From Patescibacteria group bacterium (GTDB lineage Bacteria; Patescibacteriota; Minisyncoccia; Phycocordibacterales; UBA9973): a stretch of DNA of 64,000 nucleotides. Below the pieces are notes generated by a model. The model was not told the DNA's origin, searched no databases, and saw only the letters and a program-made list of their open reading frames with translations. Numbering within the stretch: the stretch's first letter is position 1; every line of letters starts with the position of its first letter. The stretch covers positions 119,206-183,205 of the forward strand of contig JAGWUB010000001.1 of NCBI GenBank assembly GCA_028868715.1, given 5' to 3'. This document shows, one piece after another, positions 2,802 to 24,468 of this stretch. The position numbers and the translations under genes were made by a program.

Positions 2802-3833
2802 TTATAACAACTTTTCCTGACCCCCTTTAATATCAAAACCAAGATGCTCGTATGCTTTATTGGTAGCCACGCGTCCACGAGCAGTGCGTTCCAGTAGTCC
2901 GAGTTGGATTAAGTATGGCTCAATCACTTCTTCTACGGTAGCTTCTTCTTCGCTCATTGCGGCGGCAATAGTTTTTATTCCCACTGGTCCACCACCAAAT
3001 TTATCTATTAGTATTTCCAGAAATTTTCTATCTGACGTATTTAAACCGATGTCATCAATCGCCAACATATTCAGCGCATCTTTTACCATTTTTTTATCTA
3101 ATTTTCCCCCTCCACCATTTTGGCTTACTTGCGCAAAATCACGAACTCTTTTCAAAAAGTAATTTGCCGTACGTGGAGTAAATCGGCTGCGCTTGGCAAT
3201 TTCTTTTAAAGCCTCTTCCTCTAATTCTATTTCTAGCAATTTACTTGATCTATCTACTATTTTCCCAATTTCTTCATTGGAATAAAATTCCAATCTAAAA
3301 ACTCCACCGGAAAACCTAGAGCGAAGAGGGGAGGAAACGAGCGCCACCCGAGTGGTCGCTGCTATTAAAGTAAACGGTGGTAGATCCAATTGAATTGTGC
3401 GGGCTGAGGGACCCTTACCAATGATGATATCTAGGACACCAGACTCCATAGCAGGGTAGAGGATTTCTTCTACCATTTTATTCAATCTATGGATTTCATC
3501 TATAAATAGAATGTCCCCAGAGGTTAAGTTGGTCAAAATAGAGGCTAAATCACCGACTTTCTCTATGGCTGGTCCGGAAGTAATTTTCATTTGTCTACCA
3601 GTTTCATGGGCTATTAGGTGAGCAAGGGTAGTTTTCCCAAGTCCTGGCGGACCATAAAAAAGGATGTGTTCTGGAATATGCCCACGGCCGCTCGCAGCAT
3701 CAAGCAGTATTTTAACGTTGTCTTTTATGTGTTTTTGGCCGATGTATTCATTCCAGCGGGTAGGGCGGAGGGTTTGATCTAGGAAAGAATCATCAGTCTT
3801 TTCACCATTCTTTTTTGATTTAGTACTTGACAT
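2802..3833 (-). CDS. ruvB: Holliday junction branch-migration ATPase RuvB
   Basis: AAA+ Walker A GPPGLGKTTLA, Walker B ILFIDEIHRL, RuvB C-terminal winged helix. Confidence 0.95.
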   Translation of the reverse strand: MSSTKSKKNGEKTDDSFLDQTLRPTRWNEYIGQKHIKDNVKILLDAASGRGHIPEHILFYGPPGLGKTTLAHLIAHETGRQMKITSGPAIEKVGDLASILTNLTSGDILFIDEIHRLNKMVEEILYPAMESGVLDIIIGKGPSARTIQLDLPPFTLIAATTRVALVSSPLRSRFSGGVFRLEFYSNEEIGKIVDRSSKLLEIELEEEALKEIAKRSRFTPRTANYFLKRVRDFAQVSQNGGGGKLDKKMVKDALNMLAIDDIGLNTSDRKFLEILIDKFGGGPVGIKTIAAAMSEEEATVEEVIEPYLIQLGLLERTARGRVATNKAYEHLGFDIKGGQEKLL

Positions 3834-4138
3834 TGGTTTTATAATATGCTATATTGTAGGAGTAATACATTTATCAACACAGTATACACATAGCTATACA
3901 CATTATAGCATTTACGTATATTTCTATGTAGTACAATGTATTTAGACAGTAATCCGCTAGAGGCGGATATGTTTTTTAAAAAAGAAGACATTAATCTCTA
4001 AGCAATCAGCCACCGGTTATATGATTTTGCGTAGGACGTTTTGGTAAATTTATTTACTGGTGCTATCCTATAATAATTTATTACTTTTGGAGTTCAGCTC
4101 TAAAAGGATTGTTTAGAGATTAATGTTTTTTTTATTTT

Positions 4139-5836
4139 CTACTCTTCATTGAGATCTACCACACTGCGCACTTCTGCAATTGAAGTAATACCATTTAAGA
4201 TTTTTACGATGCCATCCTGACGCATGGTCAGTGTGCCTTGATTGCGAGCTACAACTTTTATTTCACGCTCGCTTGGATTCTCTGGTATTATTTTTTCTAT
4301 GGCTTCATCAGTGATAATAGCTTCAAAAATTCCTATTCGCCCATTAAAACCGGTCATGTTACATTTTTCACAACCAACGGCAGTAAAAATTTTAAAAGGT
4401 GCTTCAGGGTTTATATTGTAATTACTCAAACTTTTACCTTCTGCTTTTATACTTTCCATAACTAATTTTACAGTTTTATTTTCTTCGTCAGTTAAAGCTT
4501 GTTCCTTTTTACAGAAAGTACAAAGTTTACGCACTAACCGCTGGGCGATAGATAGCGACAATGCTGAAACTAAAATCTTTGGATTAACCCCAAGGTCAAT
4601 CAAACGAGGAATCACTCCAGCAGCATTGTTGGTGTGGAGGGTAGAGAAGACCATGTGTCCTGTCAAAGCTGACTGAACTGCAATCTCAGCAGTTTCTCTG
4701 TCACGTATTTCCCCAACCATTATTACATCAGGATCTTGTCGCAAGGCCGAGCGTAGTCCTTCAGCAAAGTTATAACCCTTCTTTTCGTTTGTTTGGGTTT
4801 GAGTTATTCCAGGGAGATGATATTCTACTGGATCTTCAATGGTTATTATATTTATTTCTTTAGAATATATTTTTCTTAAAAAGGCATATAGGGTAGTTGT
4901 TTTTCCAGATCCAGTCGGACCAGTGACTAGAATCAAGCCATTTGGTTTTACGATTTCTTTTTCAATAATACTAAAAAGATAAGGTTCAATTCCGATCTCT
5001 TCAAGATTCACTTGGATGGACTTCGGATCTAGTATACGCATGACAATAGCTTCACCATATGACCCAGGAATAAGTGAACAACGGATGCTTATTTCTTCGT
5101 CACCTTCCATAATATTGAAACGTCCATCTTGGGCAATCTTTGAGGTTAGTTTCATTTGAGACAATAGTTTTATGCGGGAGTTTAAAAGATGATACACATC
5201 TAAGTCAAAGAAATTTATATCTTGCAATACACCATCCAAGCGGAGTCGGAGTCTGCTGCGTTCTTTTTCTGGTTCAATATGTATATCCGAAGCTTTGACA
5301 GCGATACCGCCGGCTAGAATTATTTCTAGCAGACGAGAAATTTTATGAATTTTATTTCCCTCCAAAGCTTCCACGATTAATTTTTCAATATCTTGGATGT
5401 GATGGATACTTTTTGCAGTTTCTCTTAAAACCTCCCCAGAAATATCTAAACCACCAACCATAGAGCTTTCCGCCATCGAAATTTCTTTATATCTTTCCCA
5501 GACTTTGTTTAGGCTTGCCTGACTCGCCATATAAAAAGTGGGAATAAGATTTTGGCGTTGCATTAGATCTTTTAATTTTCCAATGAGATCATCATTAGGA
5601 GAGCGCATGGCGATAAAGATATTTTTTCCAAAAAGTTTAAATGGCGCGACTTTCATCTCCAGCGCATCTTTTTCTGAAATAGCCCGGAGGGCTTCGTTGT
5701 CTACACCAATGCGATATAGATCAATATAAGGCATGTGGTATTTTGATTCTGCGAGGACTGCCACCAGTTGCTCTTCTTCTTGTTTGTGTAACTCGTCCAG
5801 ATGTTTGTCTTCTGTTGTATCATCAAAATCTTTCAT
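4139..5836 (-). CDS. pilB: Type IV pilus assembly ATPase (PilB/GspE family)
   Basis: GSPII_E N-terminal domain, Walker A GPTGSGKTTT, His/Asp boxes, C-terminal CxxC...CxxC tetracysteine. Confidence 0.9.
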   Translation of the reverse strand: MKDFDDTTEDKHLDELHKQEEEQLVAVLAESKYHMPYIDLYRIGVDNEALRAISEKDALEMKVAPFKLFGKNIFIAMRSPNDDLIGKLKDLMQRQNLIPTFYMASQASLNKVWERYKEISMAESSMVGGLDISGEVLRETAKSIHHIQDIEKLIVEALEGNKIHKISRLLEIILAGGIAVKASDIHIEPEKERSRLRLRLDGVLQDINFFDLDVYHLLNSRIKLLSQMKLTSKIAQDGRFNIMEGDEEISIRCSLIPGSYGEAIVMRILDPKSIQVNLEEIGIEPYLFSIIEKEIVKPNGLILVTGPTGSGKTTTLYAFLRKIYSKEINIITIEDPVEYHLPGITQTQTNEKKGYNFAEGLRSALRQDPDVIMVGEIRDRETAEIAVQSALTGHMVFSTLHTNNAAGVIPRLIDLGVNPKILVSALSLSIAQRLVRKLCTFCKKEQALTDEENKTVKLVMESIKAEGKSLSNYNINPEAPFKIFTAVGCEKCNMTGFNGRIGIFEAIITDEAIEKIIPENPSEREIKVVARNQGTLTMRQDGIVKILNGITSIAEVRSVVDLNEE

Positions 5837-5914
5837 TATACGTAAAGTATACCCTGACGCCCACTTTCTTCAAAGTAAGTGTGTGGGTATAGCTTAAATG
5901 GTATACTTTTTACA

Positions 5915-8344
5915 ATGCCAGGTAATAATAAAACAAAAATCAAGACTCTAGTATTACTGGATGCTCATGCCATAATACACCGCGCTTACCATGCTCTCCC
6001 AGAGTTTTTGTCTTCTGATGGCGTTCCGACCGGAGCATTGTATGGACTCGCCACTATGTTGATGAAGATTATCACTGACTTAAAACCAGATTACATCGTG
6101 GCTTGTTATGATTTACCGCAAAAAACCTTTCGCCATGAAGCGTATGATGCTTATAAAGCTGGAAGAAAAAAAACTGATGACGCCCTAGTCACTCAATTAA
6201 TCAACTCTCGTAGCATATTTGAAGCCTTTAATATTCCCATATATGACAGCCCAGGATTTGAAGCCGATGACGTGCTAGGGACAATTGTAGAAAACCACAA
6301 AAATGATAAAGGGATTAAGATAATAATTGCCTCTGGGGATATGGATACGATGCAGTTGGTAGATGATAAAAAAGTACAAGTTTACACTCTCAAGAAAGGT
6401 ATCAACGACACTATTTTATACGATGAAGATAAAGTCGTGGAGAGATTTCACTTTAAGCCTAAACTTTTGCCAGACTACAAAGGTTTGCGTGGTGACCCAT
6501 CAGACAATATTATTGGTATTAAAGGAATTGGAGAAAAAACGGCTGAAAGCTTGATTCTTAATTTTGGGACTATTGAAGAAATTTATAAGAAAATCAAACA
6601 GGATGAAGGTGCTTTTAAAAAGGCGGGCCTCAGTCCAAGAATGATAGAGTTAATAAAAAATAATGAAGAAGAAGCCTTATTTTCAAAAACTTTAGCAACT
6701 ATTCGCACTGACGCGCCAATAAATTTTACTTTACCTAAAAAAACTTTTTGGGAAAGCGCTGATTTAAAGAAGGTTGAGCAAGTTTTTATGCAGTATGAAT
6801 TTCGAAGTTTATTTGCGAGACTTAAAACTTTTTTTGGAAATAATTCAGCCGAACAGGGTTCAGTAGAATTTTCTCAGGTCCTCGGAGATGGGGCCCCAAC
6901 CCCAACCAGACCATTCCAAAATTCTCCGAACCCTGTTCGGCTGAAAGAAGCTAGTATTGCCCTCTGGCTGATAAATTCTGAAATAGCCAACCCAAAACTA
7001 GAAGATGTGTTGCACTTTGCAAGAACGGAGGATTTTGAAGTCGCTTACGAATATATTTTTAAAAAACTTAAGGAAAAGAAATTGGAAAAGGTTTATGAAG
7101 AAATCGAGCAACCCATAATGTCTATTGTGAAAGAGATGGAAGACCATGGAATTTTAATTGATAAAAAATATTTTACCCAGTTGTCGAACGAATATCACAA
7201 AGAGTTGGATAAATTGACGATCAAGATATATAAAATGGCTGGAACTGAGTTTAACATAAATTCTCCCAAACAATTAGGAGAAGTACTTTTTGATAAATTA
7301 GGGATAACGCCACCTGGGAAAAAAACAGCAAAAAAAAGCGCCAATGGATCTTTCAGTACTAAAATTTCTGTGTTAGAAGAATTAGAACAAGAGAATGAAA
7401 TTATCAAAGAGATAATGGCTTATCGAGAACTTCAAAAATTACTTTCCACCTACATAGATGTGATACCCAAAATGGTTGATGCCAATGATCGACTACACGC
7501 AAAATTTTTACAAAATGGATCTTCAACAGGCAGATTTTCCTCACAGGATCCAAACCTTCAAAATTTGCCGATTAAAACGGAATTGGGTAAAAGAATCAGG
7601 GGAGGGTTTATAGCAGAGAAGGGTTATAAAATTACCGCATTTGACTATAGTCAGATTGAGTTGCGGGTGGTAGCCATGTTGTCAGGAGATAAAAAAATGA
7701 CACAAGTTTTTCGTGAAAAAAAAGATATTCATGCCGGAGTGGCTGCACTTGTTTTTAGTGTACCGATAGATAAAGTCGATAGCGAGATGCGCCGTAAGGC
7801 CAAGGTGATAAATTTCGGTATTATTTATGGTATGGGAGTTACGGCTCTGCGTAAAAATCTAGGAGGCACTAGAGAAGAGGCACAAAAATTCTATGATAAT
7901 TATTTCAATCAATTTTCTGGAGTACGAGATTATTTGGCTGGAGTAAAGAAGTTTGCAGTGGAGCATACCTATACGGAAACATTGTTCGGCCGGAAAAGAA
8001 GTTTCCCAAATATAAATTCCAGAATTCCTTTTTTAAAAAATATGGCCGAACGCACAGCCATCAATGCTCCGGTTCAGGGAACGGCAGCAGATATAATAAA
8101 ACTAGCCATTAGATACACCGACGAAGCTCTTAAAAAAGCAGGTTTACTAAAACAGGTACACTTGATGCTACAAATACATGACGAGCTAGTATACGAGATA
8201 GATGAAAGTGTGCTCACCAAAGCAAGTAAAATAATAAAAGATGCTATGGAAGGTGTACTAATGGAGTCATATTTGCATTATAAAACTGATATACCCCTAG
8301 AAGTTCACTATAATTCTGGTAATAATTTTGGGGAAGTAAAATAA
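5915..8344 (+). CDS. polA: DNA polymerase I
   Basis: 5'-3' exonuclease N-terminus; polymerase motifs DYSQIELR, KxxxFGxxYG and QVHDE; start chosen at ATG 5915 by alignment to PolI N-termini, though the ORF is open from GTG 5879. Confidence 0.9.
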   Translation: MPGNNKTKIKTLVLLDAHAIIHRAYHALPEFLSSDGVPTGALYGLATMLMKIITDLKPDYIVACYDLPQKTFRHEAYDAYKAGRKKTDDALVTQLINSRSIFEAFNIPIYDSPGFEADDVLGTIVENHKNDKGIKIIIASGDMDTMQLVDDKKVQVYTLKKGINDTILYDEDKVVERFHFKPKLLPDYKGLRGDPSDNIIGIKGIGEKTAESLILNFGTIEEIYKKIKQDEGAFKKAGLSPRMIELIKNNEEEALFSKTLATIRTDAPINFTLPKKTFWESADLKKVEQVFMQYEFRSLFARLKTFFGNNSAEQGSVEFSQVLGDGAPTPTRPFQNSPNPVRLKEASIALWLINSEIANPKLEDVLHFARTEDFEVAYEYIFKKLKEKKLEKVYEEIEQPIMSIVKEMEDHGILIDKKYFTQLSNEYHKELDKLTIKIYKMAGTEFNINSPKQLGEVLFDKLGITPPGKKTAKKSANGSFSTKISVLEELEQENEIIKEIMAYRELQKLLSTYIDVIPKMVDANDRLHAKFLQNGSSTGRFSSQDPNLQNLPIKTELGKRIRGGFIAEKGYKITAFDYSQIELRVVAMLSGDKKMTQVFREKKDIHAGVAALVFSVPIDKVDSEMRRKAKVINFGIIYGMGVTALRKNLGGTREEAQKFYDNYFNQFSGVRDYLAGVKKFAVEHTYTETLFGRKRSFPNINSRIPFLKNMAERTAINAPVQGTAADIIKLAIRYTDEALKKAGLLKQVHLMLQIHDELVYEIDESVLTKASKIIKDAMEGVLMESYLHYKTDIPLEVHYNSGNNFGEVK

Positions 8345-8393
8345 TTTACCTACCTACCTGCCAGTCGGCAGATTTTGTGGTATAATCCATAAA

Positions 8394-8864
8394 ATGGAAA
8401 CTGAAACTAAAAAGACCCACAAAGCCACAGTACACAGGGTTTTAGCCCACACCTATACAGTGTATTTGGTGTTGTTTTTGGTTGGAGTTTGTCTTGATTT
8501 TATCTTTAAAATTAAAATTTTAGAAGACTCTATCGTGGTACCAGTCGGTTTCTTTTTTCTGGTATTAGCTTCTGTGCTTATCATTTGGGCGCAAAAGACT
8601 GGACGGGACTTGAGAAAAGTTTCTGAAGTAAAAACTGAACATTTTTGCAAGGGTCCATATTGCTATACTCGTATACCTACCCAGTGGGGCCTATTCTTTT
8701 TAATGTTGGGGTTTGGTATTATCACTAATGCTTTTTTTGTAATTTTATCTACAATTGTTTCATTTTTTATTTCAAAATTCTTTTTCCAAAATAAGCATGA
8801 CAAACTTTTGGTTGAAAAATACGGTGATGCTTACGTAGAATACAAAAAATTAGTTAGGTTTTAA
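8394..8864 (+). CDS. Membrane methyltransferase of the isoprenylcysteine carboxyl/phospholipid methyltransferase family
   Basis: Four TM segments; GPYxYTRIP...EKYG C-terminal signature resembling the ICMT/PEMT family. Confidence 0.5.
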   Translation: METETKKTHKATVHRVLAHTYTVYLVLFLVGVCLDFIFKIKILEDSIVVPVGFFFLVLASVLIIWAQKTGRDLRKVSEVKTEHFCKGPYCYTRIPTQWGLFFLMLGFGIITNAFFVILSTIVSFFISKFFFQNKHDKLLVEKYGDAYVEYKKLVRF

Positions 8865-8867
8865 ATT

Positions 8868-9515
8868 ATGATATACCTTTTTACAGGGGATGATACTAAA
8901 AAAAAGCTTCCGGCCTATGAAAAATTTATAAAATCCATCCCAGCAGGGACGGAGAAATTTTTCATAAACAGGAATGATCTCAATCCTACGCAGATAGAAA
9001 GTTTTTACTCTGGGAGAGGACTATTCTTTAATAAATGCGCAATTGTATTTTCGGATATTTTAGAACGAGAAGAAGGACGGGAATTTATTTTAAAGAGATT
9101 AAAATTTATGAGCGATTCGGACAACTCTTTTATTTTTTTAGAAAGAAAATTAAACAAGCCGGTGGTAGATGCTTTTAAAAAGCACAAGAGTGAGCTTAAT
9201 ATATTTGAGCTAGCTAAAGAAAAAAAAGAGAAATTTAACAACTTTTTACTGGCTGATGCTTTTGAACAAAAAGATAAGTTGAATCTTTGGATTTATTATC
9301 GACAGGCCGTAGATAAAGGGGTGGGCTTAGAGGAACTCGTCGGGGTACTTTTCTGGAAAGCGAAAGACATGTTCTTGAAACGCAGATTTGGTAAGTTTAA
9401 AGAAGAGCAAGTAAAGAGTTTTGCTGAAAAACTCCCATATCTTTTATCAGAAGCTCGAAAGGCTGGCCGTGATGCCGAAATAGTTTTTGAGCAGTTTTTA
9501 CTAAGCGCTTTTTAA
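8868..9515 (+). CDS. holA: DNA polymerase III delta subunit-like
   Basis: MIYLFTGDD N-terminus typical of HolA; size; located next to polA. Confidence 0.5.
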   Translation: MIYLFTGDDTKKKLPAYEKFIKSIPAGTEKFFINRNDLNPTQIESFYSGRGLFFNKCAIVFSDILEREEGREFILKRLKFMSDSDNSFIFLERKLNKPVVDAFKKHKSELNIFELAKEKKEKFNNFLLADAFEQKDKLNLWIYYRQAVDKGVGLEELVGVLFWKAKDMFLKRRFGKFKEEQVKSFAEKLPYLLSEARKAGRDAEIVFEQFLLSAF

Positions 9516-9559
9516 TTATCTTGATTTTTAGCCTTATTTCCTATATATTTTGTATTCAA

Positions 9560-9635
9560 GCGCCCGTAGCTCAGTCGGTAGAGCAGCTCCCTTTTAAGGA
9601 GATGGTCGTAGGTTCGATTCCTACCGGGCGCACCA
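9560..9635 (+). tRNA. tRNA-Lys (anticodon TTT), CCA encoded
   Basis: Manual cloverleaf: acceptor GCGCCCG/CGGGCGC, T-loop GGTTCGATTCC, anticodon loop CTTTTAA. Confidence 0.9.
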
Positions 9636-9806
9636 ACACAAACCTCGTAAAGAATGTGTTAACATGTAAAGTATGCATAGGATTAATTTAACTTTAGTAT
9701 TTTTTCTTATCTTTACTATCATAAGTTCTGCGTTGGCTTATAAAATTGTAATGAGTGCTTATGATACCTATGATATTAGCTATAGTGAAGTTCAAGTAAC
9801 ACATAA

Positions 9807-11999
9807 ATGAGTATTTTTAAATTACATAATCCATTTCAGCCTGCTGGGGATCAACCAGCAGCCATTTTAAAACTAGTCCAAGGACTCAAAGATGGCATGC
9901 AGGCTCAGACATTGCTCGGTGCTACAGGCACGGGGAAGACTTTTACTATGGCTAATGTCATTGCAAAGCACAACAAACCCACTCTCGTGATAGCTCACAA
10001 TAAAACTCTCGCGGCACAACTAGCTCAAGAATTTCGGGAATTTTTCCCCACAGCTGCTGTGCATTATTTTGTTTCTTATTATGACTATTATCAACCCGAA
10101 GCTTATATGCCGGCATCGGATACTTATATTGAAAAAGATGCCTCCATCAATAAAGAGATAGACCGGCTTCGCCATGCTACCACTCAAGCGCTACTTACTA
10201 GACCAGATGTAATAATCGTAGCCTCCGTTTCCTGTATTTATGGCTTGGGTTCTCCGGAAGAGTACGAAAAAGTAAATTTAAAACTCGAAATAGGCCAGAA
10301 AATGGATAGGCTTGCGCTGATGAAAAGACTTATAACCATCCATTTTGAACGCACTAATGCCGACCTTACTTCTGGGAAATTCCGCTCTATTGGTTCTAGG
10401 GTAGAATTTATGCCGGTGTCAGAAATTATTATGTATCAAATAGAATTTTCTGGCGGAGTAATTGCTAAAATTACTAAAATTGACCCAGTTTCATCACACA
10501 TTCTTTCTGAAGAAAAAAATATCTTTATTTTCCCAGCAAAACATTTTATTACCGAAGACGTGAAGAAAAAAAGAGCTTTAGTGGAAATAAAAAAGGAACT
10601 AGAAACACAACTTAAGAAATTTAAAAAAGAAGGAAAGCTTTTAGAAGCTGAAAGAATTAAAAGAAGAACAAATTATGACCTAGCAATGATAAAAGAGATC
10701 GGATATTGTAATGGTATTGAAAATTATTCTCGACATCTCTCTGGCAAAGCCGAGGGAGAACCACCTGAAACTCTTTTGTCATACTTTCCTCATATAAAAA
10801 ATCCGGAACATACTCGCCGTCATTCGCACTCTGTTCTGGAAGGGAAAGACTTATCTGGTCGCAGCAAAGATTCCTCTGAGTATGTTCAGGACTTCCTAAC
10901 GATCATTGATGAATCGCATGTGACCTTACCACAACTGCAGGGGATGTATGCTGGTGATGCTTCGCGTAAAAATACCCTTGTAGAATATGGCTTTCGTCTG
11001 CCTTCAGCCAAAGATAACCGACCACTGAAATATGAAGAATTCAAGGAGCGCATAGGGCAAGTCGTATACACCAGTGCTACGCCAAGCGAAAGAGAACGTA
11101 GTCAAAGTGAACAAATTGTAGAACAGATTATTCGGCCGACAGGTTTAGTAGACCCAGAAACAATTGTTCGCCCAATCGGCGAAAAAAATAAATACAAAGG
11201 TCAGATATCAGATTTTATAGAGGAGACAGAAAAAACAATTAAAAAAGGATTTAGAGTTTTGGCGACCACGTTGACCAAAAAAATGGCAGAAGATCTTTCT
11301 ACTTATTTGAAAGATAAGAAAATCAAAGCAGAATATTTACATAGTGATATCAAGACGATGGATAGAATAAAAATTCTCACTCAGTTTCGTAAAGGGGAGT
11401 TTGATGTTTTGGTTGGGGTAAATCTTTTACGGGAAGGGCTAGATTTGCCTGAAGTAGCCTTGATTGGAATTTTAGATGCTGATAAATCTGGATTCCTAAG
11501 ATCTGAAACGTCGCTCATCCAAACCATTGGCCGAGCAGCCCGAAACAGTGAAGGGCGGGTTATTCTGTATGCTGACATCATGACGGATGCGATGGACTAT
11601 GCGTTAAAGGAAACTAAACGGCGTCGAGACATCCAGATTGCTTATAATAAAAAGCATGGTATCACCGCGACGACAATAAATAAAAAAATTCACGATATTA
11701 CTGAAGAGCTAGAGAGTGAGCATGGGAAAGTGGTAAACGCTGAACTCTTGCTAGACGTAGAGCTTTTCAAAAAAGCTTTTGCGAAAGACAAGAGCAATAA
11801 AGGGAAAAATGAATCTGATTCAATCAAAAATCTGGCGTTGAGTGATGAAGAAAGAAATAAAATAGTTTACGACAAGATAATAAAACTCAAAGAAAAAGAA
11901 ATGAACAAAGCCGTGAAAGAACTCGACTTCGAAACTGCTGCAATCTTGCGGGATGAAATTGTAGTTTTAAAAACTAGATTGGATAAAAAAGAAAAATAA
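9807..11999 (+). CDS. uvrB: Excinuclease ABC subunit B; carries an in-frame 26-aa palindromic-element insertion next to helicase motif II
   Basis: Walker A GATGTGKT, DESH motif, UVR domain at the C-terminus; extra peptide HTRRHSHSVLEGKDLSGRSKDSSEYV before DFLTIIDESH. Confidence 0.95.
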   Translation: MSIFKLHNPFQPAGDQPAAILKLVQGLKDGMQAQTLLGATGTGKTFTMANVIAKHNKPTLVIAHNKTLAAQLAQEFREFFPTAAVHYFVSYYDYYQPEAYMPASDTYIEKDASINKEIDRLRHATTQALLTRPDVIIVASVSCIYGLGSPEEYEKVNLKLEIGQKMDRLALMKRLITIHFERTNADLTSGKFRSIGSRVEFMPVSEIIMYQIEFSGGVIAKITKIDPVSSHILSEEKNIFIFPAKHFITEDVKKKRALVEIKKELETQLKKFKKEGKLLEAERIKRRTNYDLAMIKEIGYCNGIENYSRHLSGKAEGEPPETLLSYFPHIKNPEHTRRHSHSVLEGKDLSGRSKDSSEYVQDFLTIIDESHVTLPQLQGMYAGDASRKNTLVEYGFRLPSAKDNRPLKYEEFKERIGQVVYTSATPSERERSQSEQIVEQIIRPTGLVDPETIVRPIGEKNKYKGQISDFIEETEKTIKKGFRVLATTLTKKMAEDLSTYLKDKKIKAEYLHSDIKTMDRIKILTQFRKGEFDVLVGVNLLREGLDLPEVALIGILDADKSGFLRSETSLIQTIGRAARNSEGRVILYADIMTDAMDYALKETKRRRDIQIAYNKKHGITATTINKKIHDITEELESEHGKVVNAELLLDVELFKKAFAKDKSNKGKNESDSIKNLALSDEERNKIVYDKIIKLKEKEMNKAVKELDFETAAILRDEIVVLKTRLDKKEK
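10803..10890 (+). mobile_element. Roughly 80-nt palindromic (inverted-repeat-bounded) element inserted in frame in uvrB, copy 1
   Basis: Core 10807-10886 is identical, apart from one synonymous base, to 15110-15189 in uvrC; 13-bp terminal inverted repeats CCGGAACATACTC/GAGTATGTTCAGG. Confidence 0.7.
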
Positions 12000-12111
12000 A
12001 GACTTTTTAGTTTTTTCTGCTATACTAGAAGCAGTTAAATATAGATAGACACCCCCTATGAACAAGGCCGGGTGTGATTGTGTTATATATAGCAAAAATT
12101 AGTGAAAACCA

Positions 12112-14730
12112 ATGAAAAATCAGCAAAATATAGATAAAATAAGGGTTAAAGGGGCACGGACTCATAACCTCAAGAATATAGACATTGAGATGCCACGCAA
12201 CAAGATGGTGGTTATTACTGGCGTGTCTGGGAGTGGCAAAAGCTCACTTGCCTTTGATACTATCTTCGCCGAGGGACAGCGTCGATATGTAGAATCTCTT
12301 TCTTCGTATGCTCGACAATTTTTAAATCAAATGCCTAAGCCAGATGTGGATGAGATCACGGGTCTTTCTCCAGCAATTTCCATTGACCAAAAATCTCGGT
12401 CCAACAATCCACGCTCCACGGTGGCGACCATCACTGAAATTTATGACTATCTACGGGTGATGTATGCACGCATTGGGCATCCACATTGTCCCAAGTGTGG
12501 AGAGGAAATTAAAAAACTTTCCAACGAAGAAATTTTGAATTTTGTCTTAGAAAAGATAAATACTTTGACTAAAAGTAAAAAGAATAATAAAAAAATTATG
12601 GGGGTGGAATATGATGATACAAAAATTAGTATTTTTTCTCCCATTGTTCGTGGACGCAAGGGGGAATATTACCAATTACTCTACGATTTACTTGGGAAAG
12701 GTTTTTCTGAAATCCGCTTAGATGGTGTTATGAAAAAACTTCGCGAACAAATAACTCTTTCAAAAAATAAAGCGCACAACATAGATATTTTAGTAGATAG
12801 TTTTGCGGTGCATGAGTTTAAAGATAATAGGGAATCAAGTCGCATGCGACTTTCTGAAGCTCTAGAGAGGGCACTATTAGAAGCTGATGGATTAGTTTCT
12901 ATCAAAATAGGAGATGAAGAATTTATAATGTCTTCTAAGTTTGCCTGTAAAAATGACGGATTTTCTTTTCCAGAAGTCGAACCTCGTCTATTTTCTTTTA
13001 ACTCTCCATATGGCGCCTGTCCAACCTGTAATGGTTTGGGTTCTAAATATTTTATGGGAGATGAACCATGTGAAGACTGCAAGGGTGCGCGATTGCGACC
13101 CGAAGCTTTAAATGTCTTCTTAACCGCAGATGTTTTGGGAGATAATGGTAAGGCTCATAAAAGTAAAGTAAATATTTTAAATCTCGCTTCTCTCTCAATA
13201 AAAGATGCCCATAATTTCTTTAAAAACTTAAAACTTTCGGAGCAAGAGAAGGAAATATCTGTGCCGGTGGTTCGAGAAATAGAAGCTCGACTTCAATTTA
13301 TGCTAGATGTTGGTTTAGACTATTTACAATTGTCCCGTAAGGCTAATACACTCTCTGGTGGTGAGGCTCAACGCATACGTCTGGCTTCTCAGCTGGGCTC
13401 ACGGCTAGTGGGAGCGTTGTATGTGCTAGACGAACCAACCATAGGTTTACACCAGCGAGACAATGATCGCTTGATCAAGACCTTGGAAAATTTAAGAGAT
13501 TTAGGGAATACAATTTTAATTGTGGAGCATGATGAGGATACAATTTATGCCTCAGATTATATTGTGGACATCGGACCCAAGGCTGGAGTGCACGGAGGGG
13601 AAGTCATTGTCGCTGGATATCTTGAAGATTTATTAACTGCAAAGAAAAATACAAATAATTCTCGGACACTTTCATATTTACGTGGTGAGACAAAAATAGA
13701 AATTCCTAAAAAGCGCCGGGCTAGCAAAGGAGTGCTACGTATCGCTGGAGGCAAAGTTTTTAATATAAAAAATATGAATGTGGAGGTACCCTTGGGGGTG
13801 ATGACATCGATTACTGGTGTTTCTGGTTCTGGTAAAAGTTCTTTTATGTATGAAATTCTTTACAAGAATCTTCAAGGACGATTAGAACGTAAATATCGCA
13901 CCGCTAAAATTTTTAACTGCAGTAGTTTTAGTGGCACTGAATATCTTTCTCGGGCAATTTTAATTGACCAATCTCCAATTGGTAGAACCCCACGTTCCAA
14001 TATCGCTACTTATACAGGAGCTTTTACCCATATCCGAGATCTCTTTGCGACGACTGAAGAAGCGCGACTTCGTGGCTGGAAAGCAAACCGTTTTTCATTC
14101 AATGTAAAAGGTGGACGTTGCGAAGCCTGCGAGGGTAATGGTGAGATAGCAGTTGAAATGCATTTCTTGCCGACAGTTTATGTGACCTGTGATGTATGTA
14201 ACGGAAAACGTTTCGACAAGGAAACACTTACCGTAAAATACAAAAAGAAAAATATTTATGAAGTCCTACATATGACTGTAGAAAATGGATTAACTTTTTT
14301 CAAAGATATCCCAGCAGTTTCTGACAGATTGCAAACTTTGATGGATGTGGGTCTTGGTTATCTGGAGTTGGGACAGAGTGCTACGACTCTTTCAGGAGGA
14401 GAAGCACAACGGGTAAAAATTAGCAGTGAGCTTTATCGCCCACATACTGAAAAGACTATATATTTGCTTGATGAGCCTACTGTCGGACTGCACTATGATG
14501 ATGTGCAAAAGCTCTTAGAGGTGCTAAATAAGCTTGTAAGTAAAGGGAATACTGTGGTTCTGATAGAGCATAATTTGGATATAGTTAAAAGTTCTGATTA
14601 TATAATAGATATAGGTCCTGAAGGCGGAGTGTTGGGCGGAAACCTTGTAGCCAAAGGAACTCCAGAGGAGATTGCCAATAATGCCAAGAGTTATACCGGA
14701 AAATATTTAAAAAAAGTTCTCAAGAAATAA
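12112..14730 (+). CDS. uvrA: Excinuclease ABC subunit A
   Basis: Two ABC ATPase modules (GVSGSGKSS twice), zinc-finger cysteines, LSGGE signature twice. Confidence 0.95.
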   Translation: MKNQQNIDKIRVKGARTHNLKNIDIEMPRNKMVVITGVSGSGKSSLAFDTIFAEGQRRYVESLSSYARQFLNQMPKPDVDEITGLSPAISIDQKSRSNNPRSTVATITEIYDYLRVMYARIGHPHCPKCGEEIKKLSNEEILNFVLEKINTLTKSKKNNKKIMGVEYDDTKISIFSPIVRGRKGEYYQLLYDLLGKGFSEIRLDGVMKKLREQITLSKNKAHNIDILVDSFAVHEFKDNRESSRMRLSEALERALLEADGLVSIKIGDEEFIMSSKFACKNDGFSFPEVEPRLFSFNSPYGACPTCNGLGSKYFMGDEPCEDCKGARLRPEALNVFLTADVLGDNGKAHKSKVNILNLASLSIKDAHNFFKNLKLSEQEKEISVPVVREIEARLQFMLDVGLDYLQLSRKANTLSGGEAQRIRLASQLGSRLVGALYVLDEPTIGLHQRDNDRLIKTLENLRDLGNTILIVEHDEDTIYASDYIVDIGPKAGVHGGEVIVAGYLEDLLTAKKNTNNSRTLSYLRGETKIEIPKKRRASKGVLRIAGGKVFNIKNMNVEVPLGVMTSITGVSGSGKSSFMYEILYKNLQGRLERKYRTAKIFNCSSFSGTEYLSRAILIDQSPIGRTPRSNIATYTGAFTHIRDLFATTEEARLRGWKANRFSFNVKGGRCEACEGNGEIAVEMHFLPTVYVTCDVCNGKRFDKETLTVKYKKKNIYEVLHMTVENGLTFFKDIPAVSDRLQTLMDVGLGYLELGQSATTLSGGEAQRVKISSELYRPHTEKTIYLLDEPTVGLHYDDVQKLLEVLNKLVSKGNTVVLIEHNLDIVKSSDYIIDIGPEGGVLGGNLVAKGTPEEIANNAKSYTGKYLKKVLKK

Positions 14731-14734
14731 TTTT

Positions 14735-16051
14735 ATGAAAATTGAATCTTTCAAAAAAATAAAATTACCAAATAAACCCGGAGTATATTTTTTTCAAAAA
14801 GGTAAAACTATTTTATATATTGGTAAGGCAACTTCTCTTCGAGATAGGGTCAAAAGTTATTTTGGGAGAGATTTGATCAACACCCGAGGTCCGCTTTTAG
14901 TAGATATGATTTTTAAGGTAGATAAAATAAAGTGGCAGGAGACAGACAGTGTCTTGGAATCACTTATCTTAGAAGCTAGTTTCATAAAGAAACACCAACC
15001 TTACTACAACACTAAAGAAAAAGATGATAAAAGTTTTAACTATGTAATTATTACAAAAGAAAAACTACCCAAAGTTATTACCATTCGAGGCAAAGAATTA
15101 AAGATGCAGAAACATACTCGCCGTCATTCGCACTCTGTTCTGGAAGGGAAAGACTTATCTGGTCGTAGCAAAGATTCCTCTGAGTATGTTTCTGCATCTT
15201 TCGGTCCGTTTACGAGTGGTCCTCAATTACGTGAAGCATTGAAAATAATCCGCAAGATTTTTCCATTCCTAGACGATAAAAGTAAAAATTATATGGAATT
15301 TTATCGGCAGATAAATTTAGTACCAGATTTAAATGACCATAAATTATACTTGCAAAACATAAGGAACATAAAATTATTTTTTCAAGGCAAAAAGAAAGAA
15401 ATTTTTAGAAATCTAAAAAAGGAAATGCATGCTTATGCCAAAGCCAGAGAATTTGAAAAGGCAAGCGAAATAAAAAGACAGCTTTTTGCTCTGCAACATA
15501 TAAATGACATTGCTATGTTGAAACAAGAATCTACTTTTTCTCAGTCGCTCGGGGATGAGCTTCGCTCAACCACTCCTTCAAAAAAGCAAATTCTTGTTTC
15601 AGCCTCTATACGTATAGAGGCTTACGACATAGCTCATATGGGAGGTAAAAATATGGTTGGGGCTATGGTAGTGCTTGAAAATGGTGAGCCAGCAAAGAGT
15701 GAATATAAAAGGTTCAAAATTAGAACTCAAGACAATACAAATGATACTGGGGCACTAAAGGAAGTGCTGGAAAGGAGGCTGGCACATACAGAATGGGCCT
15801 ACCCGAGCTTGATAGTTGTAGATGGTGGCACAGCGCAAATAAATGTAACTAAAAATGTTTTAAATAAGCTCAAGGTAAATATTCCTATAGTTTCAGTATT
15901 AAAAGACGAACGACACAAACCCAAAGATATTATGGGTGACAAAAAAAATGCTTTGAAGTACAAGCGAGAAATTTTATTAGCCAATAGTGAGGCGCATAGA
16001 TTTGCCATTGCTTATCATAAAAATATGCGCAACAAAAACTTTTTGAAATAA
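14735..16051 (+). CDS. uvrC: Excinuclease ABC subunit C; carries the same in-frame 26-aa element insertion before the FGPF motif
   Basis: GIY-YIG N-terminus (GVYFF...ILYIGKA), UvrC central and endonuclease V-like regions; inserted peptide identical to that in UvrB. Confidence 0.9.
   Translation: MKIESFKKIKLPNKPGVYFFQKGKTILYIGKATSLRDRVKSYFGRDLINTRGPLLVDMIFKVDKIKWQETDSVLESLILEASFIKKHQPYYNTKEKDDKSFNYVIITKEKLPKVITIRGKELKMQKHTRRHSHSVLEGKDLSGRSKDSSEYVSASFGPFTSGPQLREALKIIRKIFPFLDDKSKNYMEFYRQINLVPDLNDHKLYLQNIRNIKLFFQGKKKEIFRNLKKEMHAYAKAREFEKASEIKRQLFALQHINDIAMLKQESTFSQSLGDELRSTTPSKKQILVSASIRIEAYDIAHMGGKNMVGAMVVLENGEPAKSEYKRFKIRTQDNTNDTGALKEVLERRLAHTEWAYPSLIVVDGGTAQINVTKNVLNKLKVNIPIVSVLKDERHKPKDIMGDKKNALKYKREILLANSEAHRFAIAYHKNMRNKNFLK
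15100..15199 (+). mobile_element. Palindromic in-frame element in uvrC, copy 2, with 19-bp perfect terminal inverted repeats
   Basis: AAGATGCAGAAACATACTC...GAGTATGTTTCTGCATCTT flank an internal sequence that is near-identical to the uvrB copy. Confidence 0.7.
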
Positions 16052-16530
16052 TGAAAATTAAACAGGAAAATATTTTAATATTAAATGATATTCGAAGTGT
16101 AGAAAATGTGGGCGCGATATTTCGTACCGCTGATGCAGCGGGGATAATTAAAATTTATTTAACAGGTTACACCCCAGCTCCGCTTGATCGTTTCGGACGA
16201 AAGCGAAAAGACCTAGCTAAGTCTGCGCTCGGGGCAGAGGAGTTTGTGGCTTGGGAGCAGAAGAAAAGTATTTTACCACTTTTGGAAAAACTAAAACGAG
16301 AAAATTATTTAATTATAGCTATTGAGCAAGATGAAAAATCTATTGATTACAAAAAGGTGAAATTAAAAAACAAAAACGTATTTATTGTCGGAGCAGAAGT
16401 CACGGGCATACCAAAAAATATTTTACAAAAGTGTGACGTTATTGCTGAGATTCCAATGCGAGGCAAAAAAGAATCATTGAACGTTTCAGTGGCACTTGGA
16501 GTGGCGCTGTTCGGTATGCTTAAGATTTAA
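16051..16530 (+). CDS. SpoU/TrmH-family RNA 2'-O-methyltransferase
   Basis: SPOUT fold motifs (NVGAIFRTADAAG; C-terminal knot region). Confidence 0.75.
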   Translation: MKIKQENILILNDIRSVENVGAIFRTADAAGIIKIYLTGYTPAPLDRFGRKRKDLAKSALGAEEFVAWEQKKSILPLLEKLKRENYLIIAIEQDEKSIDYKKVKLKNKNVFIVGAEVTGIPKNILQKCDVIAEIPMRGKKESLNVSVALGVALFGMLKI

Positions 16531-16650
16531 TATTTGCGGAAATTAAAATCCTACCGGACTCACCACGAAATTTTTTTGCTAAAAAATTTCTCTGTCCGTC
16601 GCCGTCGCTCCTACCAAGGGTTCGCTCGGCAGCATTTTAATTTCCACAAC

Positions 16651-17550
16651 CTACTTTTGACAATGGGGGCAGAAGATTGTTGTTCGGCTTTGGATGATAG
16701 TTTTCTTCAGCGGTTTGCCACAATTAACACACAGCTTGCCGGCCTTGCCATAAACTTTATGTTCTCTCGCATAGTTGCCCCTAGTATCGTCTAGTAGTCT
16801 GTATGTAGCCACAGAGGAACCGCCGACTTTGATTGCTCGATGCATAATTCTCAATATAGCCTTACGCAGTTTAGTTACTTCAGAGATAGAAAGAGAATTA
16901 GCATTTCTGTCTGGACGGACACGTGCTTCAAATAAACTCTCATCAGCGTAAATATTCCCGAGACCAGTCACTATTTTTTGATCCATTAATACCGCTTTAA
17001 TTTTTCCCTTCTTTTGTTTGAGTGCTTCCTTAAAATATTTGAGAGTAAATTTGGGTGAAAGTGGTTCCAAGCCTAGTAACCCGAAATGGTTTTCTAATTC
17101 AAACATTTTTGTATTCTTATAATATAGAAGATACCCAAACATTCGGGTGTCGTTATAATAGAGAGCTCCACGCTCAAGTTCAAATAGCACGTGAGTGTGT
17201 TTATTGGGGAGTTTTGTCTCTGATAGTTCTATGGGATGACCGCCACTGATAACCTTTGAATTAGTGAAGGACTTATAGACAAATTGTCCAGACATTTTAA
17301 GATGCGCCAAAATGATTTTTCCATGACTCAATTTAAAAATAAGATTTTTGGCCCGTCTATCAACTGCAATAAATCGTTCTCCAGTGACTCCTTTTATAAA
17401 CTCTGCTTTTTTCTTTTCGGATGCTGTACGCTGAGTTCCTTTACCAGAAACAAGCTTTGGTTTACTAATTTTCACTATACGGATTTTTTGACCGAGAATT
17501 ACTCGGACGAGTCCTTGTCTTAGGTTTTCTACTTCAGGTAATTCAGGCAT
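16651..17550 (-). CDS. mutM: Formamidopyrimidine-DNA glycosylase (Fpg/MutM)
   Basis: MPELPEVE N-terminus with catalytic Pro2/Glu3; H2TH; C-terminal zinc finger CxxC...CxxC. Confidence 0.9.
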   Translation of the reverse strand: MPELPEVENLRQGLVRVILGQKIRIVKISKPKLVSGKGTQRTASEKKKAEFIKGVTGERFIAVDRRAKNLIFKLSHGKIILAHLKMSGQFVYKSFTNSKVISGGHPIELSETKLPNKHTHVLFELERGALYYNDTRMFGYLLYYKNTKMFELENHFGLLGLEPLSPKFTLKYFKEALKQKKGKIKAVLMDQKIVTGLGNIYADESLFEARVRPDRNANSLSISEVTKLRKAILRIMHRAIKVGGSSVATYRLLDDTRGNYAREHKVYGKAGKLCVNCGKPLKKTIIQSRTTIFCPHCQK

Positions 17551-17557
17551 AGCAACT

Positions 17558-18133
17558 CTACTTACCCCCCAATATCTTTAAAGCTTCGCGAATTTTTGAA
17601 TTAGTATCTGCGTCACTAGTAACTTTCTTTAAAGCTTCGCGCGCTTCATTTTGTGAGTAACCCAAAGATTTTAGTGCCTCCAATGCATCCAATTCACCCT
17701 GCAGGGAAAGGCTAGATTTTTCGCCAGTTTCATTCTTGATTCTGTCTCGCAGTTCAATCACGATTTTTTCTGCAGTTTTCTTACCAATACCAGAAATTTT
17801 GGTGAGGTATGAAGTGTCACCAGTGCTGATAGCGCGCTTGAGGGTTTCAATTGTGGTAATGCCCAAAATGGAGAGTGCTCCACGAGGTCCGATGCCAGAA
17901 ACATTTATCAACATCTCAAAAAATTCTAGTTCTGGATAGTCAGGGAATCCATATAAATCAAAAGAGTCTTCACGTACATGGGTATGGATGAATAGAAAAA
18001 TTTCATCGCCTATTTTTTTAGTTTTAGACAGCGTGTCGGGAGATATGCTGATTTTATATCCAACCCCAGCGGTTTCCACTATCAAAAACTTCTCGTTTTT
18101 TAAAATTATTTTACCCTTTATGCTTCCGATCAT
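17558..18133 (-). CDS. ruvA: Holliday junction DNA helicase RuvA
   Basis: MIGSIKG N-terminus, two HhH motifs, C-terminal domain III. Confidence 0.9.
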   Translation of the reverse strand: MIGSIKGKIILKNEKFLIVETAGVGYKISISPDTLSKTKKIGDEIFLFIHTHVREDSFDLYGFPDYPELEFFEMLINVSGIGPRGALSILGITTIETLKRAISTGDTSYLTKISGIGKKTAEKIVIELRDRIKNETGEKSSLSLQGELDALEALKSLGYSQNEAREALKKVTSDADTNSKIREALKILGGK

Positions 18134-22221: not shown

Positions 22222-24261
22222 TTATTGTGTCACAGTGGTAGTTTTTCTACCAGAAGGTTGCTCCAAAGTCGTGGTAGTTTTTCTCTGGAATGATTGACCA
22301 AAGAGGTATTTAGCCAAAAGGATCAATACTAAGATTAGAATCAAGAGTAGAAGCCAACCAAAGATACTGTTTGGTAGGAAGCCAGCTCCGAAGACATTTG
22401 CTCCAAGAGATACACCAGATACAGTTCCACAAACATTTGCTGAGACATTTGCGCTGACTGATTGTGGCGCACCAGAAGGATCAACATAACTCAAGGTAGC
22501 AGGGAAGTTCAAAGGTGCACCAGCGGATATATTTTCTCTTACATGCACTCTGGCTGTCACTGTACCTTGTCCGTTTGCTCGCAAGGTTCCCAAGTTAAAG
22601 ATTAAAGTTTGCCCAGAAATAGTTGCGTTGCTTGGATTTGAGGATAGGTAAGTAACTTCTGCTGGAAGATCTACTCGCAGCACTAGGCCAGTAATAGATG
22701 CATTGCCGATGTTTTGATAAGTTATGCTGTAATTAATATCATCTCCAGGACATGGATTAGTATTGTCGAGCGTAGGGACGATTGGTCGATTACGGTCTAC
22801 GGTAGAAGTGACCAAGACCAAAGAGGTAGGTGTTCTATTAGTGGTAACTCCTAATACTTGTCCATTTACATTTACCGTCACAAAATCACTTGCTGATCCC
22901 ATACCATTAGTACAAGTTATTGAATAAGTTCTAGTGCCAGTCAAACTTCCAGTGTAGAAAGCACCTGGACCGATAGACTTTATTCCTGCCCAACCGACAG
23001 ATCCACCAGAGGCATTACAAGAAGTTGCATTAGTGGTGCTCCAGCGGATTGTCGTAGCTCCGTTGAAGGCTAGGTTAGTTTGATCTGCAGTTATAGTTAC
23101 TGTTGGTTGATAAGTTACTGGAAAAATGTTTCCACCAGTTACATAAACTGTAGTTGAACCAACTGCATTTCCAGTACCGTTACTACAATTTATATTGAAG
23201 GTCGTTGTGTTAGTTAGTGGTCCAGTGTAGAAACTTCCAGACAAATTTTGAGTGCCATACCAGCCGTTGGTGCCACCACTCGCGGTACAGTAAGTCGCAT
23301 TAGTCGAATACCAAGTTATGGTGCTTGTACCATTGTAGTTTACATTTGATGGGCTAGCGTAGATACTAACAACTGGATACTGTTGATTATTATAATTATT
23401 TACATAAACCGTAGTTGAAGCCACTGCACTTCCAGTACCGTTACTACAATTTATATTGAAGGTCGTTGTGTTAGTTAGTGGTCCAGTGTAGAAACTTCCA
23501 GACAAGTTTTGAGTGCCATACCAACCGTTGGTAGTACCACCACCTCCACTTGCTGTACAGTAACTTGCATTGGTTGAATACCAAGTTATGGTACTTGTGC
23601 CGTTGTAGTTTACATTTGATGGGCTAGCATAAATACTGACGGTCGGAACATTTTGGTTGTTATTTACATAAACCGTTGCAGTCGCGCTAGCTGATTGACC
23701 AGTACTATTTGTACAAGTAGTCGTGTAAGTCGTAGTTCCGGTCGGAGTAACTATACCCGATCCAGAGGTTGCAGTGCTTCCAGTCCAAAAAGCGGAGCAA
23801 GAAGTTGCATTAGTTGAATACCAAGTAAGAGTACTTGAATTACCAGAGTTAATAGTTGAAGGATTTGCATTTAGAGTTACAGTTGGAGTCGAGATTTGGT
23901 TACAAGAAGGAGTCGTAAAAGTTCTAGTTTCGCCAGTATAATTACCATTCCTATTTGAGGCCATCGCTCGGAACGAATAAACAGTATTTTCCGTAAGACC
24001 ACTTATGTATTGAGAGTAGCTTCCACTTACTGTAAAGCTTTGCTGAGGAGTAGTGTTATCAAGGGAACCACCTTGACCCCATTCAAACCATGCCAAAGTT
24101 GCCACACCGCCGGTATTAACATTTCCATCTAAAGTGGCGCTATTGCATGTCATTGCAAAAGCAGTCTTTGCTGGCATTAAGGGTACAGCCAAAATACCCA
24201 TAAATACGACCATACTTAGTAAAAGCAAACCTTTATTCAATTGTGTTTTTAAATTGTTCAT
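22222..24261 (-). CDS. Large secreted/surface protein with tandem Ig-like repeats and a C-terminal DUF11-like domain plus hydrophobic anchor
   Basis: Signal peptide; fourfold repeated roughly 80-aa modules (ITWYSTNA.YCTASGG...FNINCSNGTG); C-terminal TM segment; S/T/N/G-rich. Confidence 0.7.
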   Translation of the reverse strand: MNNLKTQLNKGLLLLSMVVFMGILAVPLMPAKTAFAMTCNSATLDGNVNTGGVATLAWFEWGQGGSLDNTTPQQSFTVSGSYSQYISGLTENTVYSFRAMASNRNGNYTGETRTFTTPSCNQISTPTVTLNANPSTINSGNSSTLTWYSTNATSCSAFWTGSTATSGSGIVTPTGTTTYTTTCTNSTGQSASATATVYVNNNQNVPTVSIYASPSNVNYNGTSTITWYSTNASYCTASGGGGTTNGWYGTQNLSGSFYTGPLTNTTTFNINCSNGTGSAVASTTVYVNNYNNQQYPVVSIYASPSNVNYNGTSTITWYSTNATYCTASGGTNGWYGTQNLSGSFYTGPLTNTTTFNINCSNGTGNAVGSTTVYVTGGNIFPVTYQPTVTITADQTNLAFNGATTIRWSTTNATSCNASGGSVGWAGIKSIGPGAFYTGSLTGTRTYSITCTNGMGSASDFVTVNVNGQVLGVTTNRTPTSLVLVTSTVDRNRPIVPTLDNTNPCPGDDINYSITYQNIGNASITGLVLRVDLPAEVTYLSSNPSNATISGQTLIFNLGTLRANGQGTVTARVHVRENISAGAPLNFPATLSYVDPSGAPQSVSANVSANVCGTVSGVSLGANVFGAGFLPNSIFGWLLLLILILVLILLAKYLFGQSFQRKTTTTLEQPSGRKTTTVTQ

Positions 24262-24468
24262 AATGTTTTTCTATAACATATGCTCACTTGTGTCAAGTAG
24301 AGCAACTAATAATATAATAATGAAATAAGGGGAGAGCGAAAACAAACGGATCTCACTCTCTAAAGACATGACGTAGAAATAATATTCTTATTTCATGGCT
24401 TTAGAGAGTGGAGGAGGGGAGGTCCTAAAAACTCTCTCCCTCCTCCCGATGAATATCAGGAGAAGATT

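Follow-up and report, generated by a model that had tools for sequence, protein, structure and literature searches.

In-frame copies of a hairpin repeat in uvrB and uvrC of an uncultured Patescibacteria bacterium

The 64-kb stretch of DNA analysed here (the window) comes from an uncultured Patescibacteria bacterium and carries, inside the excision-repair genes uvrB and uvrC, two in-frame copies of an 80-nucleotide (nt) segment that differ at a single base. We propose, with a probability of roughly 0.6, that these segments belong to an old non-autonomous hairpin repeat which resides in frame in disordered loops of a few repair genes, its copies homogenised by gene conversion and its arms kept complementary by template switching. 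In what follows, L-numbers denote DNA loci of relatives or from metagenomes and P-numbers denote proteins of relatives.

Results

Two near-identical copies lie in the same frame of uvrB and uvrC

A search of the window at up to three mismatches located the 80-nt segment twice, at 10807-10886 in uvrB and at 15111-15190 in uvrC (both on the + strand), with 79 of 80 positions identical where chance would predict no match. The segment runs AACATACTC...GAGTATGTT, and the sole difference between the copies is CGC/CGT. An earlier reading of the DNA letters (the original prediction) had claimed this near-identical segment and its single differing base, and had placed the uvrC copy one base low, at 15110-15189. 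Its further claims of a shared reading frame and of unrelated surrounding genes also held, as each copy begins at codon position 2 and encodes HTRRHSHSVLEGKDLSGRSKDSSEYV, and the uvrB and uvrC flanks are 26-30% identical, which is the random level.

Copy 1 is hosted by uvrB (9807..11999, +; 730 amino acids, aa), an open reading frame (ORF) that matched solved UvrB structures in a phmmer search with E = 1e-227 and an alignment broken at aa 329-360. The whole hairpin, delimited by its inverted repeat and by orthologous copies, occupies 10796..10897 (+) between YFP and DFLTIIDESH, a position that we call uvrB site 1. Its 5′ arm ends at 10815, the loop spans 10816-10877 and the 3′ arm starts at 10878, such that the 80-nt segment corresponds to the 62-nt loop plus 9-nt inner arms. 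Copy 2 is hosted by uvrC (14735..16051, +; 438 aa), an ORF of the short form that matches the GIY-YIG and endonuclease domains of solved UvrC. The hairpin lies at 15100..15201 (+) between RGKEL and FGPF (uvrC site 1), with arms at 15100-15119 and 15182-15201 around a loop at 15120-15181. The inverted repeats reported in the original prediction are thus real and their lengths were given slightly short: the uvrC arms pair perfectly over 20 bp, and the inner 14 bp of the uvrB arms pair with one mismatch (or 17 bp at 88%), the outer part having decayed. The uvrC copy has an RNA fold z-score of -3.8 on the + strand and -5.1 on the - strand. Pairing is confined to the terminal arms and the interior is not palindromic. 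The G+C content of the element is 46%, compared with 37.6% for the window.

The window UvrC is 100% identical to P0001, an NCBI protein from a metagenome-assembled genome; an exact-sequence look-up of the window UvrB and UvrC found neither recorded. UvrC of the window clade is generally a short protein of ~390-460 aa that stops after the endonuclease domain and lacks the canonical C-terminal helix-hairpin-helix region. Beyond the near-identity itself, nothing speaks for an assembly artefact that duplicated the segment into two genes, and we consider the chance of one negligible: the family occurs at identical codon positions in independent assemblies (NCBI, JGI, ENA, Logan), and both ORFs are intact.

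The inserts add residues to predicted disordered loops

The original prediction had counted 26 residues as extra in both proteins, and alignment to insert-free UvrB and UvrC bears this out. Solved UvrB structures align to query aa 3-328 and 361-634 and leave 32 aa (329-360) unmatched between YFP and DFLxIxDESH; relative to other Patescibacteria, most of which have YFP-HKxDGxP-DFL at this position, the excess is 26 aa. The spacing from RG to GP(F/Y) in UvrC is 37 residues in the window and 12 in insert-free relatives, an excess of about 25 aa. Whether the insert is surface-exposed had been posed as a question. AlphaFold2 models of both proteins have confident cores, and at UvrB aa 338-354 and UvrC aa 132-149 the predicted local distance difference test score (pLDDT) falls below 50 with no secondary structure. 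These low-confidence coil excursions between well-modelled flanks suggest that the inserts sit in surface or disordered loops of the modelled host proteins.

Two other candidate features of uvrB were rejected. The conserved HKKDGSP loop of UvrB was considered as a footprint of the element, but this loop is conserved across distant Patescibacteria. Apparently split uvrB genes in relatives were found to be ordinary partial or frameshifted calls.

The frame and its openness are strictly kept, which argues that the insert is translated as part of the host protein and makes removal of the hairpin from the mRNA unlikely. In this respect the element would differ from the substrates of SOS splicing, an animal RNA process in which a paired inverted-repeat stem triggers excision from mRNA (PMC12779559).

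A gene-blind search finds the family in few genes

To define the family, a degenerate 32-nt loop pattern was scanned over JGI metagenome DNA without reference to genes, and further copies were sought by an nhmmer profile search over all DNA collected. The pattern recovered 39 metagenome stretches, which together with earlier loci gave 41 distinct copies, and nhmmer added five for a total of about 46. Comparison of the spanning ORFs with window proteins, Pfam and PDB identified the hosts as polA (in the linker after the 5′-3′ exonuclease domain), uvrB (site 1, YFP^DFL; site 2, RPVSE^YPGQI), uvrC (site 1, RGKEL^FGPY; and a site 2), uvrA (L107, L116) and cca, which encodes an HD-domain CCA-adding enzyme of class II (FHDIGKPK^YTFYGHEV). 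The one exception, in L105, lies in AT-rich and probably intergenic DNA. Because the scan used a DNA pattern that is blind to genes, this restriction is a result and not a product of ascertainment. The earlier remark that both hits fell in excision-repair genes therefore reflects something systematic, with uvrA, uvrB, uvrC, polA and cca as the hosts. The carriers appear to be a subclade of Patescibacteria that is Paceibacteria/Nomurabacteria-like, and the element persists in lineages whose host proteins are just 70-85% identical.

A census of hairpins in the window (stem of at least 14 bp, spacer of 25-120 nt) gave a similar distribution. Eight inverted repeats met these cut-offs, and six of the eight fall in the interval from 3.9 to 16.7 kb. 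The strong intragenic hairpins, four in number, were all in polA, uvrB or uvrC, genes that account for roughly a tenth of the coding DNA. The 276 kb of metagenome loci contained few other long hairpins, again in uvrB and uvrC.

Almost all copies (48 of 51) have the same orientation and phase and encode xLRRSHS(V/I)LEGQ..SG(R/S)SE(D/Y)SSEH, with intact host ORFs. The original prediction had named an ancient shared protein motif as the contrary case, to be recognised by orthologues diverged in nucleotide sequence at the same site and by a lack of further copies. Diverged orthologues are indeed present, but more copies lie in polA, uvrA, the second uvrB site, the second uvrC site and cca, in both orientations, which is why we regard the element as a repeat family and not as an ancient protein motif. 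A related idea is that the shared peptide (xRRSHSVLEGQ..SGRSEDSSEH) is a functional module, for example a docking or modification site, that several nucleic-acid enzymes have acquired. This would fit with the use of one frame at all sites though a second forward frame is often open, and with an RRxS-like motif that is conserved, a conservation imposed in part by the loop search pattern. The peptide is, however, predicted to be disordered and shows much non-synonymous variation, its conserved codons lack synonymous variation, and the same sites tolerate inverted and unrelated inserts, all of which makes a functional module highly improbable. When the 34-aa peptide was compared with representative proteins, the sole match was a spurious ORF over a tandem repeat; the peptide had no match in a 5.8-billion-protein index, a result that is uninformative since the window's own proteins likewise went unscored.

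In two copies, L097 (cca) and L111 (uvrB site 1), the loop is inverted between the arms and the host ORF remains intact. The architecture recalls intragenic invertons, in which perfect inverted repeats surround a short in-frame segment (PMC10028968), and both orientations of the present family occur in nature. If the element were such an invertible segment, flipping of the 62-nt loop would recode 20 residues or, in many relatives, add a stop, so that repair capacity would vary reversibly. The inverted loop is open in frame in both window copies, and the two natural inversions are fixed with intact ORFs. We nevertheless find this explanation very doubtful, because the inverted frame is open in just 22 of 39 copies, as in control frames, with no sign that an open inverted frame is conserved; because ~95% of assemblies have the forward orientation; because no associated invertase gene is adjacent in the window; and because template switching alone accounts for rare inversions (PMC8604942). 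The genes near the element-bearing cca in L097 (2239-3961) include one for a Xer-like tyrosine recombinase, probably a housekeeping enzyme, and one for a protein of the exonuclease III family.

The two window copies are old and have probably been homogenised

Both window sites are occupied in relatives: uvrB site 1 in L005, L088, L092, L101, L107, L118, L121 and P0130, and uvrC site 1 in L001, L002 and P0006. The correspondence extends into the arms. At uvrB site 1 the window 5′ outer arm, AAAAAATCCGG, is identical in L118/L120, where UvrB is 84% identical to that of the window, and at uvrC site 1 the window and L002 have 15 of 20 arm bases in common. On the evidence of these orthologous sequences, both sites are shown to have been occupied before the window lineage split from its relatives. 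In L002 only the last 9 nt of the loop and the 3′ arm (HIKDEDSFEYIPDFL) are left at uvrB site 1 (~5890-5935), a deletion remnant that illustrates the way in which copies disappear.

Identity of the window uvrB loop to its orthologues is 90% for L118, 82% for L107 and 73% for L005, with the flanking gene at 72-78%, yet it reaches 98% to the window uvrC loop, with flanks at 26-30%. Over the 30 loop positions left free by the search pattern, copies at different sites of the same genome have a mean identity of 0.88 and copies at the same site of different genomes 0.75, and this pattern of within-genome likeness is repeated in four other genomes. As both sites are occupied in relatives while the window copies are closer to each other than to their orthologues, it is reasonably settled that the 79/80 identity reflects homogenisation of two old copies and not a new insertion. 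The original prediction had offered recent mobility or gene conversion, which was the right pair of options: gene conversion fits best, and recent mobility does not accord with sites already filled in relatives. The recent tract of non-reciprocal recombination would have covered the loop and the 9-nt inner arms. Since AACATACTC, the inner arm, is of the uvrB site 1 type (L092, L101), conversion probably ran from uvrB to uvrC.

A recent jump between the two uvr genes by a miniature transposon that is active today would likewise yield 79/80 identity, including the 9-bp inner inverted repeats, and would account for one loop family occurring across genomes in different genes and in both orientations. 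Besides the orthologous copies that relatives carry at both sites, several observations make such a jump quite improbable. The arms are not conserved termini, and no direct target-site duplication flanks either window copy; a profile search of the 64-kb window found no third copy of the RRSHS loop family, and viral contigs gave no loop-family match; and no transposase was present among the 20 window ORFs scanned.

The loop is conserved while the arms drift and stay paired

The original prediction had treated the element as bounded by conserved terminal inverted repeats. The defining part is instead the 62-nt loop, and the arms of 19-22 bp vary by site and covary. In relatives the same 62-nt loop occupies uvrC site 1 (L001, L002), the second uvrB site and polA (L002), and polA and uvrB site 1 (L005), and the arm sequences differ at each of these sites. 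Arms of at least 18 bp (mode 20-22) were found in 30 of the 41 distinct pattern-defined copies, within whole hairpins of 100-109 nt, and were perfect in 12 of the 30; in about a quarter of copies the arms had decayed. Semi-conservation is limited to the six arm bases that adjoin the loop (ATGCTC / GAGCAT). Beyond them the sequence varies, apart from a CCGGA(A/T) motif that several sites have; a CCGGA(A/T)NATGCTC core is common to arms at different sites.

An attractive origin for the arms was an inverted duplication of the target made on insertion, as the 3′ arm at uvrB site 1 holds the native PDFL codons. This was dropped as a general rule because the net gain at uvrB site 2 of L117 is the whole GC-rich hairpin, and because of the shared CCGGA(A/T)NATGCTC core.

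Pairing of the arms was examined in 24 copies aligned without gaps (alignment A3). Across the 22 arm pairs, 87% of cells were paired, compared with 58% in shuffles and ~40% with the partner slid, and changes had occurred on both sides in 21 of the 22, with a covariation score of 0.71 versus 0.18. Compensated cells numbered 161, and one-sided (wobble) states about six. The well-preserved copies supplied 619 arm positions, of which 589 were Watson-Crick pairs, 17 were A·C, 8 were G·U and 5 were other combinations. RNAalifold recovered the terminal stem as the sole helix, no covarying helix was found within the loop, and Rfam gave no match at the gathering threshold or at E <= 1 over window positions 3900-16800.

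The arms at uvrB site 1 give a view of how complementarity may be kept. Their 3′ arm holds the conserved PDFL codons, and synonymous variants in these codons are mirrored in the 5′ arm (CCGGATTTTTT with AAAAAATCCGG in L118, CCGACTTCC with GGAAGTCGG in L101, CCCGAC with GTCGGG in L088), where the mirroring alters the encoded amino acids. The four arm mismatches in the window uvrB copy are explained by its two outer arms being of different types. A stem selected as RNA is expected to be rich in G·U pairs on the transcribed strand and in wobble intermediates. No preference for G·U was seen and compensated changes far outnumber wobble intermediates, which favours copying of the arms at the DNA level over selection on an RNA fold. 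We infer that template switching between the arms, within the hairpin during replication, operates here; arm homogenisation and spacer inversion by template switching have been documented in E. coli and yeast (PMC7202029, PMC8604942).

The same data bear on the possibility that the element is a pathway-specific cis-regulatory hairpin. The 20-bp stem would then present a single-stranded 62-nt loop in the mRNA, or in transient single-stranded DNA, of uvrA, uvrB, uvrC, polA and cca, and a common trans-acting protein, small RNA or RNase would bind the loop and co-regulate excision repair and tRNA-end repair. The confinement of hosts, in a DNA scan without gene bias, to a single pathway and cca, the location of all four long intragenic window hairpins in polA, uvrB or uvrC, the extensive covariation by which the stem is kept, the conserved and unstructured loop sequence and the persistence across diverged lineages all point this way. 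We still regard regulation as unlikely: the sense strand is not enriched in G·U (8 G·U versus 17 A·C) and nearly lacks wobble intermediates, unlike selected RNA stems; orthologous loops show no greater conservation than the coding DNA around them; close relatives have many unrelated loop families, or none, at the same sites; arm decay in about a quarter of copies is joined by frequent loss; and Rfam has no match. Equally tentative is the broader suggestion that the hairpins are a pathway-specific device of reduced bacteria, through which a trans-acting factor would co-regulate repair without a classical SOS circuit, or by which the loop would flip proteins between isoforms or off states.

Other hairpins and repeats in and near the repair genes

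A second loop family is present in the window polA at 6844..6945 (+), with 18-bp perfect arms, a 66-nt loop and the in-frame peptide EFSQVLGDGAPTPTRPFQNS. The polA linker is a hot spot, holding this second family in the window and the RRSHS family in L002, L005 and others, and UvrC site 1 of other species (P0023, P0039, P0061, P0077, P0109) is taken up by a EFSQVLGDGAPTPTRPFQNS-type peptide. The window uvrC contains a second hairpin insert, recognised by its inverted repeat, at site 2 (15519..15601, +), with 21-nt arms at 90% and the peptide FSQSLGDELRSTTPSKK. Its loop is related to the polA one (FSQSLGD...) and lies in a hypervariable region before the endonuclease domain, with pLDDT <50 at aa 263-290. 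In an alignment of UvrC (A1), several relatives have a small insert before EKLPKV, near window aa 108 (KPARAGGGE, KVYLRHGVNE, KPASTRGDSSTRGGE), which is absent from the window; on visual inspection of no more than the peptides, the underlying DNA may be a short G+C-rich palindrome.

A third loop family forms an intergenic hairpin between a SpoU methylase gene and fpg (16534..16649, +; inverted repeat). Its loop is 90% identical over 74 nt to a reverse-oriented, in-frame uvrC insert of L005 (10861-10934), and the hairpin resembles the UvrC site-1 inserts of P0099 and P0116. Elsewhere among the relatives, uvrA of L002 holds a hairpin family with 23-bp arms and a 46-nt loop (7748-7839), and in L001 one hairpin family is found both inside polA and in the intergenic spacer by ruvA (1049-1117 and 13680-13756).

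The host genes form part of a repair neighbourhood of 15 kb (2802-18133) comprising ruvB(-), polA, uvrB, uvrA, uvrC, fpg(-) and ruvA(-), with which L001 and L002 show synteny. The spacer that separates ruvB from a type II/IV secretion ATPase gene holds 30-nt inverted repeats, 87% complementary and 99 nt apart (3978-4136). Further repeats of the window include a 48-nt tandem repeat just downstream of a Trp/Tyr-tRNA synthetase family gene (1426-1521), a tandem duplication of 261-270 nt (94% and 81% identical) at 23139-23663 in a DUF11 repeat protein gene (22222-24261, minus strand), and, in an intergenic spacer (24354-24410), a 28-nt near-palindrome with a 1-nt centre.

Discussion

The two window segments are best read as paralogous copies of an old non-autonomous hairpin repeat of about 100-106 nt, consisting of a 62-nt loop and ~20-bp arms. 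Its confinement to few genes would follow from a small number of permissive, non-essential hosts in a streamlined genome together with repeated overwriting of existing hairpin sites, and ongoing random transposition would not be behind it.

The closest known counterpart is the Rickettsia palindromic elements (RPE), in-frame palindromic repeats in Rickettsia housekeeping genes that are surface-located and conserved at orthologous sites (PMC10969869, summarising Ogata et al. 2000, 2002). The likeness includes a repeat of ~100-150 bp with a palindromic stem and no mobility gene of its own, translation in frame as a fold-compatible peptide, orthologous sites in related species and a reduced-genome lineage. 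The original prediction had drawn this parallel, and it stands in so far as the element occurs in several unrelated genes, in frame, with pairing ends and at fold-compatible surface sites. It is a likeness of behaviour; homology to the RPE-1 to RPE-10 sequence families is not expected, and the phylum is different. Whereas RPE occur in a wide range of unrelated genes, almost all copies of the present family fall in five; the conserved loop with site-specific covarying arms and the within-genome homogenisation are further differences.

Other known systems fit less well. [quoted passage not shown] They have conserved termini matching a parent insertion sequence and direct target duplications, neither of which was seen here, and a classical MITE was rejected on these two grounds. 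Quasipalindrome mutagenesis accounts for arms that are perfect, for compensated changes made in one step, for the mirroring of synonymous 3′-arm changes in the 5′ arm and for occasional loop inversion; being a process and not an element, it leaves the origin of the loop, its spread and the choice of host genes unexplained. REP sequences are short (20-40 nt), extragenic, imperfect palindromes linked to RAYT transposases. The REP-like character that had also been suggested was not seen, as the present element is ~100 nt long with a 62-nt loop and nearly always intragenic, and has only hairpin formation in common with REP, BIME and REPIN sequences. We found no description of such elements in Patescibacteria, in literature of limited coverage where this is absence of evidence only.

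Several points weigh against an old, homogenised repeat. The host range is far narrower than random insertion followed by tolerance predicts, and the coverage of a whole pathway (uvrA, uvrB, uvrC, polA) is a hint that function or targeting may be involved. In other lineages these sites hold several unrelated loop families, which needs repeated independent colonisation or loop replacement, and drift does not predict arms of a uniform ~20 bp. A master copy re-inserted into an occupied site would be indistinguishable from gene conversion. Finally, the case is built on DNA sequence and predicted proteins, and the copy count covers 64 kb of a contig of about 313 kb.

What sets the element apart from RPE and MITEs is a conserved loop with drifting arms, extreme host restriction and within-genome homogenisation. 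Its anatomy is unusual in that the arms change in sequence and yet stay paired, and the family offers a clean natural data set on gene conversion between repeats of 60-80 nt and on the maintenance of palindromes at the DNA level through arm homogenisation and spacer inversion. It also carries a warning for annotation, as length variation of UvrA, UvrB, UvrC, PolA and CCA-adding enzymes in these bacteria stems from repeat inserts. Selfish DNA inside protein-coding genes, so far a hallmark of Rickettsia, would be extended to the candidate phyla radiation; and if the element were functional, the fact that it lives almost solely in the excision-repair pathway would suggest a novel mode of repair regulation.

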